Origin: a virus
Lineage: Duplodnaviria > Heunggongvirae > Uroviricota > Caudoviricetes
Length of the DNA stretch: 4,969 bases
Virus record (IMG/VR): IMGVR_UViG_2690316166_000007
Strand: one strand, 5' to 3'
Below the pieces are notes generated by a model. It was given only the letters and a program-made list of their open reading frames with translations. It had not been told where the DNA came from and ran no database searches. Shown piece after piece: positions 1,246 to 4,969 of the stretch. The first letter of the stretch is position 1. The number at the start of each line of letters is the position of its first letter. The translations under genes were made by a program, and so were the position numbers.

Positions 1246-1336
1246 ACCACAATCTGAACTCATCACCTTGTCACAGATGCAGAAATGCACCTGCGATTTT
1301 CTGCATTCTGCGGTTTCCGTTAGGGAGGCCGTATGA
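1241..1336 (+). CDS. ylcH: Small ORF (31 aa, MRPQSELITLSQMQKCTCDFLHSAVSVREAV), positional equivalent of DLP12 ylcH; stop overlaps the ybcN start (ATGA)
   Basis: ATG at 1241 preceded by AAGGGGA 5 nt upstream; in-frame TAA immediately upstream limits the ORF to 31 codons. TGA at 1334-1336 overlaps the ybcN ATG at 1333-1335. Assigned by position; I do not remember the ylcH sequence. Below the length cutoff of the supplied ORF track. Confidence 0.4.
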   Translation: MRPQSELITLSQMQKCTCDFLHSAVSVREAV

Positions 1337-1788
1337 CTCTGCCAGTAGACGGCATCAAACTCCATCGCGGTAACTTCGCGGCCATCGGCCAGCAGATTCA
1401 GCCATTGCTGGATGCCGGGCAATGCTTACGCCTGCAGGTTAAGCCGTGGCGCGAGAAGCGCAGCCTGTCGCAGAACGCGCTCAGCCACATGTGGTACACG
1501 GAGATCAGCGAATATCTCATCGCCCGCGGCAAGACCTTCGCTACGCCTGAGTGGGTCAAAGACGCGATGAAGCACACCTATCTCGGCTACGAAAGCAAAG
1601 ACCGTGTAGATGTCGTGTCCGGCGAGGTCACCACCGTCCAATCCCTCCGCCATACGTCAGAGCTGGAAACCGGCGAGATGTACATCTTCCTGTGCAAAGT
1701 CGAAGCCTGGGCGATGAATATCGGCTGCCACCTGACAATTCCGCAGAGCTGTGAATACCAGCAGCTGCGCGATAAGCAGGAGGCGTAA
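1333..1788 (+). CDS. ybcN: YbcN, DLP12-type prophage protein (151 aa); recalled as an Orf/NinB-family recombination mediator with reported DNA base-flipping activity
   Basis: ORF 1333..1788 from the track; strong SD GGGAGG (1323-1328) 4 nt before the ATG. Protein matches my recollection of E. coli K-12 YbcN, and the downstream gene order ninE-ybcO-rusA-ylcG-quuD-nmpC matches DLP12. Confidence 0.85.
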   Translation: MTLPVDGIKLHRGNFAAIGQQIQPLLDAGQCLRLQVKPWREKRSLSQNALSHMWYTEISEYLIARGKTFATPEWVKDAMKHTYLGYESKDRVDVVSGEVTTVQSLRHTSELETGEMYIFLCKVEAWAMNIGCHLTIPQSCEYQQLRDKQEA

Positions 1789-1958
1789 TGGCTACACCGC
1801 TTATTCGTGTCATGAACGGGCACATCTACAGAGTATCAAATCGTCGTAAGCGTAAGCCTGAGCTGAAGCCATCCGAAATACCAACACTGCTCGGATATAC
1901 CGCTAGCCTGGTTGATAAAAAATGGTTGCGACTGGCAGCAAGGAGGAATCATGGCTGA
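1788..1958 (+). CDS. ninE: NinE-family small prophage protein (56 aa, [56 protein letters not shown])
   Basis: ATG at 1788 overlaps the ybcN stop (TAATG); SD AGGAGG at 1778-1783. Hand translation runs to TGA at 1956-1958. Basic, nin-region position. Too short for the ORF track. Confidence 0.8.
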   Translation: MATPLIRVMNGHIYRVSNRRKRKPELKPSEIPTLLGYTASLVDKKWLRLAARRNHG

Positions 1959-2241
1959 TTTGAGAAAAGCAGCGCGTGGTCGGGAATGCCAGGTAAGAAT
2001 CCCTGGCGTATGTAATGGCAATCCTGAAACGTCAGTACTGGCACATATCCGGCTGGCTGGATTGTGCGGTACCGGTATCAAACCGCCAGACCTGATTGCC
2101 ACCATTGCATGTTCTGCCTGTCACGACGAAATCGACCGCCGCACATATTTTGTCGATGCTGAGTATGCAAAAGAATGCGCGCTGGAAGGTATGGCGAGAA
2201 CGCAGGTTATCTGGCTGAAAGAGGGGGTTATTAAGGCGTGA
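1951..2241 (+). CDS. ybcO: YbcO (DUF1364), Cys-rich putative zinc-binding nuclease of the prophage nin region (96 aa)
   Basis: Track ORF 1912..2241 begins at a TTG. I prefer the ATG at 1951 ([14 protein letters not shown]...) because AGGAGG at 1941-1946 sits 4 nt upstream and the ATG overlaps the ninE stop (ATGGCTGA). Conserved Cys/His positions; matches recalled K-12 YbcO. Confidence 0.85.
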
Positions 2242-2600
2242 ATACCTACAGCATCACATTACCCTGGCCTCCGAGCAATAACCGCTATTACCGCCATAAT
2301 CGCGGGCGCACACACATCAGCGCAGAAGGGCAGGCATACCGCGATAACGTCACCCGAATCATTAAAAACGCAATGCTGGATATCGGCCTGGCTATGCCAG
2401 TGAAAATCCGTATTGAGTGCCACATGCCGGATCGCCGTCGCCGTGACCTGGATAATCTGCAAAAAGCCGCTTTTGACGCACTCACCAAAGCAGGTTTCTG
2501 GCTGGATGATGCTCAGGTCGTTGATTACCGCGTTGTGAAGATGCCTGTTACCAAAGGTGGGAGGCTGGAACTGACCATCACCGAAATGGGGAATGAATGA
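2238..2600 (+). CDS. rusA: RusA Holliday-junction resolvase (endodeoxyribonuclease RusA, 120 aa)
   Basis: Track ORF 2238..2600 with GTG start overlapping the ybcO stop (GTGA). Protein [24 protein letters not shown]...[25 protein letters not shown]... matches recalled E. coli RusA, including the acidic catalytic region. Confidence 0.9.
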
Positions 2601-2737
2601 TGTTTGAGTTTTATATGGCAGAACTTCTTCGCCACCGCTGGGGGCATCTGCGCTTATATCGTTTCCCCGGTTCTGTTTTGACCGATTACCGAATACTGAA
2701 GAATTACGCCAAAACCCTGACAGGAGCAGGAGTATGA
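2597..2737 (+). CDS. ylcG: YlcG-like small prophage protein (46 aa, [46 protein letters not shown])
   Basis: ATG at 2597 overlaps the rusA stop (ATGA). Hand translation ends at TGA 2735-2737. Position matches ylcG of DLP12; too short for the ORF track. Confidence 0.6.
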
Positions 2738-2822
2738 AGTCAGAGATAACAATCAACTAATACTGTTTTGTTGATTTTTGCTTGTAATTGGCGTTCTGGT
2801 CTGATTTTTGTGGAGTAAGTTG

Positions 2823-3206
2823 ATGCGTGATATTCAGATGGTTCTTGAGCGTTGGGGAGCGTGGGCGGCTAATAATCATGAAGATGTGACCTGGTCGTCC
2901 ATTGCCGCCGGTTTTAAGGGATTAATTACTTCAAAAGTAAAATCTCGCCCGCAATGTTGTGACGATGACGCGATGATTATTTGCGGGTGCATGGCCCGTC
3001 TGAAAAAGAACAACAGCGATTTGCACGATTTATTAGTAGATTATTATGTAGTCGGTATGACATTCATGTCACTGGCAGGTAAGCATTGCTGCTCTGATGG
3101 TTATATCGGGAAAAGGTTACAGAAGGCTGAGGGCATAATTGAAGGGATGTTAATGGCATTAGATATCCGGTTAGAGATGGATATCGTTGTTAATAACTCT
3201 AATTAA
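2823..3206 (+). CDS. quuD: Late-gene antiterminator Q of a lambdoid prophage (127 aa), DLP12 QuuD-type
   Basis: Track ORF 2808..3206 starts at a TTG. I prefer the ATG at 2823 ([22 protein letters not shown]...) with GGAG at 2812-2815, 7 nt upstream. Cys-rich segments ([21 protein letters not shown]). Position is immediately before the porin moron and terminator structures. Confidence 0.85.
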
Positions 3207-3239
3207 TATGCCAATTGTTTACTAAAAATTATTAAAAAT

Positions 3240-3257
3240 GGGGCGTTGCAACGCCCC
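3240..3257 (-). terminator. GC-rich perfect hairpin (GGGGCG-TTGCAA-CGCCCC) flanked by A/T runs; candidate intrinsic terminator for leftward (porin) transcription
   Basis: The 18-nt palindrome is preceded on + by ATTAAAAAT, so on the - strand the hairpin is followed by AUUUUUAAU. On the + strand it is followed by CAAAAAUAAA, which is not a U-tract. Confidence 0.4.
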
Positions 3258-3323
3258 CAAAAATAAAGGGTAATATATAACAGAAGGTTTATATAGTTAG
3301 AAGCAAGGTTGTGCTCCTAAAGG

Positions 3324-3379
3324 AAGTGGCTTGAGGGAGCCACTTATATGTTGGGGAGGCAAAGCCTCCCGCAACATAT
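3324..3379. terminator. Two adjacent stem-loops just downstream of the porin stop; candidate bidirectional terminator (tR'-like for the + strand, porin terminator for the - strand)
   Basis: Hairpin A: 3324-3331 / 3338-3345 (AAGTGGCT / AGCCACTT, 6-nt loop). Hairpin B: 3346-3360 / 3364-3379 (about 15 bp, one bulged G, AAA loop), followed on + by CUUUUAG. On the - strand the same structures follow the porin TAA (3397-3395) and precede CCUUUAGG. Confidence 0.45.
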
Positions 3380-3394
3380 CTTTTAGTAATCAAA

Positions 3395-4599
3395 TTAGAA
3401 CTGGTAAACCATACCTACAGCAACGATATCATCGGTAGCAACGCCAGATGCTTTCGTGAAATCGCTCTTATCAATCAGGTTGATTTTGTAATCAACAAAA
3501 GTGGACATATTTTTGTTGAAGTAATAGGTTGCACCTACATCAATATATTCAACCAGGTCCTGATCACCCCACGCACCCAAGTCTTTTCCTTTAGATTGCA
3601 GGTAAGCAACGGACGGACGCAGACCGAAGTCGAACTGATATTGTGCAACTACTTCGAAGTTTTGTGCTTTGTTGGCAATATGGTTATTACCAAAAACAGT
3701 CATGTTCTGGGTTTCAGAATAGGTGGTAGCCAGATAGATGTTGTTCGCATCATATTTCAGACCAGCTGCCCATACTTCAGCATTTTGACCAGATGCATTC
3801 AGGCTGTTGTTACCGTAGATAACCTGATTATTAGTGCGGTCAGATTTAGCATAGGTTGCACCTACACCGAATCCTTCATACTCATAAGTAGTGGAGAAAC
3901 CGAAACCATCACCATTAGCTTCAGTTACGTCAGTGCGGTCATTTTTACCCTGATACTGAGCAGCAAAGTTCAGACCATCAACCAGACCAAAGAAGTCGTT
4001 GTTACGATAAGTTGCAACACCAGTGGTGCGACCAGTCATGAACACATCTGTTTGAGTCCAAGTGTCACCACCGAATTCTGGCAGGACGTCAGTCCACGCA
4101 CCGATGTCGTATGCTACACCGTAGTTACGGCCGTAATCGATGGAGCCGTAGTCACCGAATTTCAGGCCAGCGAAGGCAAGACGGGTTTTATCTTTGGANN
4201 NNNNNNNNNNNNNNNNNNNNNNNNNNNNNNNNNNNNNNNNNNNNNNNNNNNNNNNNNNNNNNNNNNNNNGTAGTCACCGAATTTCAGGCCAGCGAAGGCA
4301 AGACGGGTTTTATCTTTGGAGGAACCTTGAGATTCAGCGCGGTTGCCTTTGAATTCATATTCCCACTGACCGAAACCAGTCAGTTGATCGTTGATTTGGG
4401 TTTCACCTTTGAAGCCAAGACGGGCATAAGTAGTATCACCATCATCTGCATCATTAGAGGAGAAGTAGTGCTTAGCATTAACTTTCCCGTACAGATCCAG
4501 CTTGTTACTGTCTTTATTATAAATTTCAGCTGCCTGAGCAGACATCGCCATCAGTACTGATGCAGCTACAGCAGAAATTGCCACTGTTAATTTTTTCAT
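3395..4599 (-). CDS. nmpC: General outer-membrane porin of the OmpC/OmpD/NmpC family (prophage moron); reading frame split in this assembly by an N gap plus a duplicated 51-mer
   Basis: ATG at 4599-4597 gives [23 protein letters not shown] / [17 protein letters not shown]..., a signal peptide with AQA cleavage motif. The C-terminal part (track ORF 3395..4045) ends ...VGMVYQF with the terminal Phe typical of beta-barrel OMPs. Removing the 122-nt gap-plus-duplicate joins ...[14 protein letters not shown] to [27 protein letters not shown]... in frame, giving 361 codons including the stop. Confidence 0.8.
4148..4320. repeat. Perfect 51-bp direct repeat (4148-4198 and 4270-4320) abutting both edges of a 71-nt N run (4199-4269); most likely an unmerged contig-end overlap
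   Basis: GTAGTCACCGAATTTCAGGCCAGCGAAGGCAAGACGGGTTTTATCTTTGGA occurs twice, ending exactly at the gap start and beginning exactly at the gap end. 51 + 71 = 122 nt, not a multiple of 3, which accounts for the apparent frameshift in the porin. Confidence 0.85.
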
Positions 4600-4969
4600 C
4601 GTGAGCCCTTTTTTTGAACTATTATTAAAAAATGATGTCACTGCGCGATAAATATTCATCTAATCAATGTGATTATTTCAAGATGTAAGTTTTGGTTTCT
4701 CGTTTGATTTGTGAAGTAGATCTCTATTTTTATCTGAACTTTTTTCTATCGAATCCTATTCATGGCTCTTGGCTGAATAAAAATAAATCTATTAGCCAAT
4801 TTATATTAACGGCTGTTATTTATAAGTGCTCTATAATTTGAAGGTTCAATTTAAACCGGCTAAAAATAACACTGGAAATTATTTGTTGGTTATTTGTTGG
4901 GATTTGCTTATGTATTTGTAGTGGTGTTTTCAATACTCGGTAGCATTCTCGCAAATATCATTTAGTGGT
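4600..4969 (-). promoter_or_regulatory. AT-rich upstream region of the porin gene; promoter and regulator sites presumably here but not confidently located
   Basis: About 370 bp with no ORF of meaningful length. Contains an exact tandem 11-bp repeat TTATTTGTTGG x2 (4879-4900) and a TATAAT hexamer on the + strand (4832-4837) without a convincing -35. Confidence 0.3.

Follow-up and report, generated by a model that had tools for sequence, protein, structure and literature searches.

In phages lambda, 933W and H-19B, the late promoter pR′ lies directly after the Q antiterminator gene or overlaps its end. The 4,969-nt stretch of DNA analysed here (the window) carries behind its Q gene a stem-loop-rich spacer and then a porin gene that runs in the opposite direction, which raises the question of what the spacer encodes. 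A preliminary description of the sequence had proposed that it contains a late promoter, a Q-utilisation site and the terminator tR′, together with a terminator for the porin gene. Taking all parts jointly, we consider it highly probable that the spacer is the small-RNA gene ipeX, that the porin gene and ipeX form a reverse-oriented moron between Q and pR′, and, as a proposal, that the RNA would act on ompC by antisense pairing.

Genetic context of the spacer

By its gene content, the window reads as a DLP12/PA-2-type lambdoid prophage of Escherichia coli. The open reading frames and their Pfam domains identify the plus strand as a lambdoid nin-to-late junction, and DLP12 of E. coli K-12 has the same gene order (ybcN, ninE, ybcO, rusA, ylcG, quuD, nmpC and essD). 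This order is common to many inducible lambdoid phages, including the qsr′-type substitution in phage 434B. The genes and the flanking region of the window are:

1333 to 1788, plus strand: NinB-like gene
1788 to 1958, plus strand: ninE
1951 to 2241, plus strand: ybcO
2238 to 2600, plus strand: rusA
2597 to 2737, plus strand: ylcG-like open reading frame
2823 to 3206, plus strand: Q antiterminator of the QuuD type, 127 aa (Pfam PF06530, E = 3.5e-53)
3395 to 4599, minus strand: prophage porin of the nmpC/lc family (Pfam Porin_1, E = 2.6e-92)
4600 to 4968, minus strand: A/T-rich region upstream of the porin gene, probably the right part of a moron, conserved in 79 related loci

The window's Q protein is 78 to 81% identical to the Q proteins of the Stx phages 933W and H-19B, and distantly matches the phage 21 Q structures 6jnx and 6p18 (E = 7.6e-07). 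The porin gene, which phage records name lc, nmpC or OmpD, has CRP sites annotated upstream of it in the PA-2 record. The window's copy of the porin gene also contains a run of 71 N (4199 to 4269) with a 50-bp duplication on its flanks.

The spacer measures 188 bp between the Q stop (3206) and the porin stop codon (3395 to 3397), the length previously given for it. Its secondary structure is well beyond chance: the minus strand folds with a free energy of −63.2 kcal/mol, compared to −32.1 ± 3.4 kcal/mol for dinucleotide shuffles (z = −9.2), and the plus strand with −67.0 kcal/mol, compared to −42.8 ± 4.5 kcal/mol (z = −5.4). The sequence is also widespread. A 301-bp piece across the spacer is present in 2504 of 5426 complete E. 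coli genomes, and the spacer alone in 2510 of them, with one to three copies per genome and a median of one.

The spacer is an allele of ipeX

We identified the spacer by comparing it to the E. coli K-12 genome. The ipeX gene of MG1655 occupies positions 574365 to 574531 on the reverse strand and is 167 nt long (PMC8313858, supplementary file 1). The last base of quuD in NC_000913.3 is 574339, and the nmpC frame closes at 574529 to 574531; ipeX therefore begins with the porin stop codon and stops 26 nt from quuD. The corresponding interval of the window runs from 3397 down to 3232, a length of 166 nt, and the U-run of a terminator stands at its end. Compared with K-12 strains over 191 nt, the spacer shows 96.4% identity, and the value is again 96.4% for the sequence that follows lc in phage PA-2 (J02580.1), a phage in which the literature also places IpeX (PMC8065619). 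By sequence, then, the spacer is an allele of a small-RNA gene that has already been described.

As in DLP12 and PA-2, the window's ipeX immediately follows the nmpC/lc stop codon on the strand of the porin gene, faces quuD and ends at the same terminator. It differs by a few substitutions, by a 1-nt indel beside the first stem-loop, and by the loop of its terminator, which reads TGCA on the plus strand where K-12 and PA-2 have TGAG. The porin gene itself is interrupted by IS5 in K-12 and is without IS5 in the window.

According to the literature, IpeX is a 167-nt DLP12 RNA that arises from the porin promoter within the porin transcript and controls OmpC (PMC12197685), and both ompC and ompF are repressed by it (PMC5069750). 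Reviews describe it as processed from the porin transcript and as lowering OmpC and OmpF (PMC12197685, PMC5069750, PMC3333887), and its action on ompC is described as independent of Hfq (PMC8313858). The function of the window's ipeX would follow from these secondary citations combined with the identity of its sequence. In the 2006 work of Castillo-Keller et al., OmpC and OmpF were reportedly inhibited by IpeX and OmpA was not. That IpeX begins at the porin stop codon may reflect how the gene was annotated and not an experimentally mapped 5′ end.

Current annotation passes over this gene. RefSeq and phage annotations leave ipeX unmarked and label the prophage porin ‘ompC’, the complete window gave no Rfam match at E ≤ 1 (Rfam has no IpeX family), and the supplements of the Hfq-CLASH study hold no ipeX entry. 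We considered and rejected two other identities for the spacer. One table labels ipeX as ‘REP’, a dispersed repeat, which disagrees with its one to three copies per genome. The plus strand has been annotated with a small protein gene (‘ORF1’ in PA-2 and a ‘hypothetical protein’ in 434B), and the corresponding frame, from the ATG at 3348, stops after 12 codons in the window's allele.

Structure and variation of the RNA

The transcribed elements of ipeX, ordered from its 5′ end, are:

3232 to 3397, minus strand: ipeX, the 166-nt 3′ untranslated tail of the porin mRNA, which opens with the stop codon and closes with the last base of the terminator U-run
3346 to 3379, minus strand: stem-loop 1, which immediately follows the porin stop codon and is the most stable of the hairpins (−22.2 kcal/mol)
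3324 to 3345, minus strand: stem-loop 2, with arms AAGUGGCU and AGCCACUU (−10.4 kcal/mol)
3296 to 3320, minus strand: stem-loop 3, with arms UUAGGAGCA and UGCUUCUAA (−9.5 kcal/mol; −5.3 kcal/mol on the plus strand)
3273 to 3296, minus strand: weak A/U hairpin carrying the anti-Shine-Dalgarno sequence ACCUUCUG in its loop (−2.1 kcal/mol)
3232 to 3257, minus strand: Rho-independent terminator of the porin/IpeX transcript, a 7-bp GC stem with a 4-nt loop (3257 down to 3240) followed by AUUUUUAA (3239 down to 3232)

Stem-loop 2 is a second perfect hairpin (3324 to 3331 paired with 3338 to 3345) that was absent from the preliminary description. Between the weak A/U hairpin and the terminator, the predicted minus-strand fold leaves a U-rich stretch open.

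Across 23 distinct alleles from 84 loci, together with Escherichia albertii, the loops and flanks vary and most stems are kept; in stem-loop 3, for example, one pair is either G·U or A-U among alleles. The terminator stem is invariant among 17 alleles and its loop is variable. For the five hairpins, across 17 distinct alleles including E. albertii, the covariation score was −0.14 kcal/mol with two pairs doubly changed; formal covariation is absent because all copies are at least 90% identical. The asymmetry between G·U and A·C pairs, used as an indicator of the transcribed strand, showed no difference (824 versus 821 of 850 cells). We assign the RNA to the minus strand because of the polarity of the terminator's U-run, the published annotation and the complementarity to ompC.

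The distribution of ipeX is narrow. We searched downstream of the porin genes in 80 representative species (Enterobacter, Citrobacter, Salmonella, Klebsiella, Serratia and others) with an nhmmer profile of IpeX. The only matches were behind the prophage porin in E. coli and in E. albertii, and the profile returned nothing for the chromosomal porin orthologues in representatives of about 75 further enterobacterial species.

Transcription termination within the spacer

A terminator scan of the spacer called one site only, on the minus strand, consisting of the stem from 3257 down to 3240 followed by ATTTTTAATA. The stem contributes −12.5 kcal/mol and six of its seven pairs are G-C. Its U-run is present on the minus strand only; when the same stem is read on the plus strand, CAAAAATAAAGG comes next. 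The DNA of this stem is the palindrome GGGGCGTTGCAACGCCCC at 3240 to 3257, which is perfect over 18 nt, as had been noticed earlier. The perfection is peculiar to the window's allele, whose TGCA loop completes the palindrome; the K-12 allele, with its TGAG loop, has a stem of 7 bp.

The earlier proposal that the spacer holds the porin terminator is thus borne out for this hairpin. It does not extend to the other hairpin, at 3346 to 3379, which exists as described (arms 3346 to 3356 and 3369 to 3379, then CTTTTAG). That hairpin is not the porin terminator because AAGUGGCUCCCU comes next on the minus strand; its immediate flanks read AAGUGG on that strand and CUUUUAG on the plus strand, and the scan did not call it on either one.

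An additional role of the same hairpin on the plus strand would be compatible with all other readings of the locus. Followed by CUUUUAG (CUUUUUCG in K-12), it might end unmodified transcription that reads through beyond Q, and, if so, the porin gene would be shielded from antisense transcription. The −22.2 kcal/mol stem and the four to five U next to it, both kept in the K-12 and E. albertii alleles, are what such a terminator would display. The base of the stem at the U-run, however, is A/U-rich and bulged, the U-run is short, the terminator scan is silent here, an N-modified polymerase would ignore the hairpin anyway, and its presence is explained equally well as the 5′ stem of IpeX. We therefore regard this extra role as unlikely.

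Location of the late promoter

We now turn to the proposal that the spacer contains pR′, the Q-utilisation site and tR′, with late transcription reading antisense through the porin gene. The position is the expected one by analogy with lambda, 933W and H-19B, and the strings on which the proposal was built are indeed in place (TTGCAA at 3246 to 3251 and TAATAT at 3271 to 3276, 19 bp apart), as is the hairpin at 3346 to 3379 with CUUUU behind it on the plus strand. As a promoter, however, the two hexamers are no better than chance. A sigma-70 scan found zero sites in the spacer, and three in positions 2700 to 4969, compared to 6.0 ± 2.4 in shuffled sequences. The 19-bp gap is outside the 16 to 18 bp of a sigma-70 promoter. 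The putative −35 element falls in the allele-variable loop of the IpeX terminator, where the plus strand reads TTGAGA in K-12 and PA-2 and TTGAAA in others, and the putative −10 element sits within a block, at 3261 to 3289, that is antisense to ompC (see below).

The cognate promoter region is found elsewhere. In the 933W record, pR′ (TTTACG, 16 bp, TATCAT) overlaps the end of a longer Q gene (144 aa) and is followed by qut and terminators. For the Stx phages of strain Sakai, the pR′ start was mapped by dRNA-seq and a 3′ end 258 nt downstream by Term-seq (Sy et al., PMC7547250); in the 933W record, counting 258 nt from a start placed some 7 nt past the annotated −10 element leads to the end of the second annotated terminator. 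The spacer (3207 to 3394) contains no homologue of this 933W block (TTTACG, 16 bp, TATCAT, AAGAGTGGTTAC, and a GC hairpin with a T-run). In K-12, the DLP12 homologue of pR′ (577195 to 577275) lies beyond nmpC, about 130 bp upstream of the holin gene essD, and consists of TTTACG, 16 bp, TATGCT, the initial transcript AAGAGTGGTTAC and the hairpin AACCCGCCGTCGAGCGGGTTTTT. Among 84 loci, which include 80 viral contigs with a Q identical to that of the window, 80 have the block 1640 to 1658 bp after the Q stop or, when an IS element is present in the porin gene, farther away; it is present beyond the porin gene in each related locus long enough to include it.

The window ends exactly where this block begins. 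Its last 69 bases align to positions 5128 to 5196 of the K-12 locus (L002). Position 5196 opens the pR′ block there, which makes base 4969 the initial T of the −35 hexamer:

4969, plus strand: first base of the −35 hexamer of pR′ (TTTACG); just outside the window follow the remainder of pR′, the initial transcribed block and the tR′-like hairpin

The DLP12-type pR′ shares with the pR′-qut-tR′ regions of 933W and H-19B, whose terminated transcript is the small RNA StxS, the same −35 hexamer, the 16-bp spacing, the initial transcribed sequence, and a homologous GC hairpin with a T-run. The two differ in that the mapped tR′ of 933W is the second terminator, 258 nt downstream; upstream of the K-12 holin gene, inspection of the L002 sequence by eye revealed no second terminator-like hairpin.

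In phages of this type, the porin gene thus appears to stand between Q and the late promoter, which begins about 1.64 kb after Q, and we consider a pR′ within the spacer to be very improbable. The collision between late and porin transcription that had been suggested falls with it: late transcription starts past the porin gene and heads away from it, so that, once modified by Q, it diverges from the porin and misses the spacer. The transcription that does converge on ipeX is read-through of the early operon leaving Q, and the spacer has no consensus plus-strand terminator to stop it. The DLP12 lysis operon is reportedly controlled by the prophage's Q-type antiterminator (PMC7918800).

A probable reverse-oriented moron downstream of Q

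Homology between the window's Q gene and that of 933W stops at about position 3181, and from there to about 4965 the window has no counterpart in 933W. By alignment, the inserted segment accordingly extends from about 3182 to about 4965, and the last approximately eight codons of Q belong to it. The segment contains a porin promoter region, the porin gene, ipeX and a terminator. Its distribution follows the type of Q: ipeX occurs in 36 phage records, namely 35 with a Q at least 95% identical to that of the window and the PA-2 fragment, and the Stx phages with a 77 to 81% identical Q are absent from the ipeX matches among phage records. In 933W and H-19B, pR′ directly abuts Q.

Phage morons are self-contained accessory cassettes in the late regions of lambdoid phages, with bor, lom and stx as examples. 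The alignments suggest that the porin gene and ipeX are such a self-contained moron, inserted in reverse orientation between Q and pR′. Like other morons, the segment has its own upstream region and terminator, is missing from the closest relatives with a similar Q, and has definable borders. Unlike them, it is reverse-oriented, it is located between Q and pR′ rather than downstream of pR′ and tR′, and it clips the C-terminus of Q.

IpeX is complementary to the ompC ribosome binding site

We quantified the interactions between IpeX and porin mRNAs by calculating duplex free energies. Full-length RNAduplex predictions of IpeX against 180-nt targets were loop-ridden and meaningless, and segment, window and opening-energy calculations were used instead. 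They single out one element:

3261 to 3289, minus strand: invariant core of IpeX, antisense to the ompC translation initiation region by duplex calculation

Two stretches of this core pair with the ompC leader. IpeX nucleotides 109 to 123 (AACCUUCUGUUAUAU, positions 3275 to 3289) form 15 contiguous pairs, one of them G·U, with ompC −21 to −7 (AUAUAACAGAGGGUU), a pairing that takes in the Shine-Dalgarno sequence GAGGG. Nucleotides 129 to 137 (CCUUUAUUU, positions 3261 to 3269) form 9 bp with ompC −31 to −23 (AAAUAAAGG). The duplex has a free energy of −26.7 kcal/mol, compared to −12.1 ± 3.0 kcal/mol for 1000 shuffled sequences, none of which equalled it, and it retains a net −14.8 kcal/mol once the costs of opening both RNAs are paid. 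When 29,234 enterobacterial segments of 60 nt were scored, 10 did equally well; two of these are ipeX's own complement, leaving 8 of about 29,232. Several of the next-best genomic segments are ompC-type leaders of other species. The number of contiguous pairs should be read with care, as A/U-rich sequence gives long chance runs and the shuffles reach 14 pairs compared to the 15 observed. The pairing stretches have zero substitutions among the aligned E. coli alleles; in E. albertii, a single C-to-U change in the 9-bp stretch retains pairing as G·U.

Read on the plus strand, positions 3261 to 3293 align to the ompC leader itself, which explains the TAATAT string that had been taken for a −10 element. 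The same comparison distinguishes among porin targets. The calculated duplex energies are −26.7 kcal/mol for ompC, −19.1 kcal/mol for ompF, −14.4 kcal/mol for the phage porin's own leader and −9.6 kcal/mol for ompA, a ranking that appears to match the order of reported effects (OmpC and OmpF lowered, OmpA reportedly not).

The mechanism that we propose combines these elements. By the reading we favour, the porin gene is transcribed leftwards, on the minus strand. Beyond the stop codon its transcript covers another 166 nt, with three stable stem-loops and then an open, A/U-rich segment, and it stops at the Rho-independent terminator, 26 nt from the stop codon of Q. Either alone or within the porin mRNA, this 3′ tail would be the published IpeX RNA, which lowers the host's OmpC and OmpF. 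Its invariant open stretch would pair with the ompC ribosome binding site (15 bp, plus 9 bp upstream) and block translation. The phage porin's own leader, not being complementary, would escape, and the lysogen would swap OmpC for the phage porin. Our confidence is evenly balanced on whether IpeX is a direct antisense regulator of ompC, whose core looks like a captured and inverted porin leader.

The proposed action resembles that of MicF and MicC on ompF and ompC, respectively, in its imperfect antisense pairing over a porin Shine-Dalgarno sequence, in the U-rich stretch beside a Rho-independent terminator, and in a genetic link to another porin gene; the likeness is one of mode of action (general facts on MicF and MicC, PMC5745476). 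IpeX differs in being derived from a 3′ UTR and carried on a phage moron, whereas MicF and MicC are chromosomal, independent genes, and in the Hfq independence described for its action on ompC (PMC8313858).

The competing explanation is that IpeX acts indirectly, through titration of a protein or through an envelope-stress response, and that its likeness to the ompC leader is a relic without function, for example an inverted leader fragment. Castillo-Keller et al. are said to have excluded complementarity in their 2006 study. A 2023 paper states that IpeX and ompC lack complementarity and that regulation is indirect (PMC10690425), another source that the mechanism does not rely solely on complementarity (PMC12197685), and the Hfq independence of IpeX points the same way. 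Contrary to PMC10690425, however, the complementarity to the ompC ribosome binding site exists and is beyond chance. A functionless relic also accounts poorly for the block at 3261 to 3289 being the least variable part of the spacer, for a match that lies over the Shine-Dalgarno sequence and is still favourable once both RNAs have been opened, for its rarity (below about 3 in 10,000 genomic segments), and for a ranking of ompC, ompF, the phage's own porin and ompA that fits the reported phenotypes. On this evidence, we judge an indirect action to be doubtful, though a serious contender.

Implications

The spacer is a known gene within a known type of cassette, and its novelty is low. Because ipeX is left unannotated in RefSeq and phage records and lacks an Rfam family, automated readers are likely to go on rediscovering this spacer. 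In DLP12/PA-2-type phages, a 1.6-kb reverse moron would part Q from its late promoter, which matters for mapping the Q-dependent control of the lysis cassette.

The match to the ompC ribosome binding site is the one point worth following up: earlier work has called the action of this RNA unexplained or indirect, and pairing would supply a simple mechanism that can be tested directly. If the direct antisense mechanism is true, the phage would silence the host's receptor porin by using a piece of that porin's own leader, while the phage's own porin escapes.

IpeX and the ompC leader

The E. coli ompC leader, from positions -31 to -3, aligns with the plus strand of the Q/porin spacer at window 3261-3293, which corresponds to nucleotides 105-137 of IpeX, the minus-strand small RNA that carries the porin's 3′ tail and terminator. 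Because it is the spacer's plus strand that aligns to the leader, IpeX is antisense to the ompC Shine-Dalgarno region, with matches of 15 and 9 bp. Such complementarity was said not to exist in a 2023 paper (PMC10690425). The best predicted IpeX partners include several ompC-type leaders from porin loci of other Enterobacteriaceae (L088-L166), so conservation of the target site extends far outside E. coli. At these same loci, an ipeX-like 3′ UTR was not found at the chromosomal porin orthologues, which are 60-84% identical to the phage porin.

The preliminary description reported a perfect palindrome at 3240-3257, within the IpeX terminator hairpin. The palindrome is present, but its perfection is specific to this allele, and only a 7-bp stem is conserved. 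When alleles are compared on the plus strand, the 4-nt terminator loop is TGCA in the window, TGAG in K-12 and PA-2, and TGAA or other sequences elsewhere.

Annotation of the porin region

In many E. coli RefSeq genomes (records H1-H25), PGAP labels the prophage porin 'ompC: porin OmpC' and ipeX is left unannotated; no family matching ipeX was found in Rfam 15. Existing records also annotate the following features around the porin.

Window 3348-3386 (L085 180-389; L001 3049-4457), plus strand: 'ORF1' of the PA-2 record and 'hypothetical protein' of 434B, antisense to the porin 3′ end
L085 1434-1454 and 1730-1750: two CRP-binding sites in the PA-2 record, between lc and the lysis genes

Both annotated reading frames begin inside stem-loop 1, the first hairpin of IpeX. 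Since the frame ends after 12 codons in the window allele, it is not conserved and the proposed gene is probably spurious. The first CRP site falls at about window 4705-4730 and the second lies past the window's end; the region containing them stands between pR′ and the porin promoter, which are divergent.

Within the porin gene, a run of 71 Ns (4199-4269) is flanked on both sides by an exact 50-bp duplication (4149-4198 = 4270-4319). Without the Ns and one duplicate copy, the distance from Q to pR′ is 1641-1642 bp, as in related loci, and the arrangement (4149-4320) seems to stem from masking or assembly rather than to be a biological feature. The window's left end is mostly masked by two long N-runs (109-462 and 514-954), and minus-strand ORF fragments adjoin both.

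Q and its late promoter

Q is 127 amino acids long in the window, compared to 144 in the Stx phages 933W and H-19B, and its homology to theirs ends at about 3181, leaving a remaining segment at 3182-3206. Insertion of the moron, the reversed porin and ipeX cassette, thus swapped the 17 C-terminal residues of Q for about eight unrelated ones. In 933W, the C-terminal tail of Q overlaps pR′.

Window 4969 (very last base) and beyond (L002 5196-5275): block of the true late promoter, with pR′ of 933W as its homologue
L002 5248-5270: first GC hairpin with a T-run, K-12 DLP12
L084 2983-3005 and 3186-3214: hairpin/terminator counterparts compared with L002 5248-5270

As the late promoter block starts at its last base, the window contains Q without the promoter on which Q acts. 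In Stx phages, mapping placed tR′ at a second terminator, 258 nt downstream of the transcription start, whereas a by-eye reading of K-12 DLP12 between pR′ and the holin gene reveals only the first hairpin. Consequently, the first GC hairpin may serve as tR′ in DLP12-type phages.
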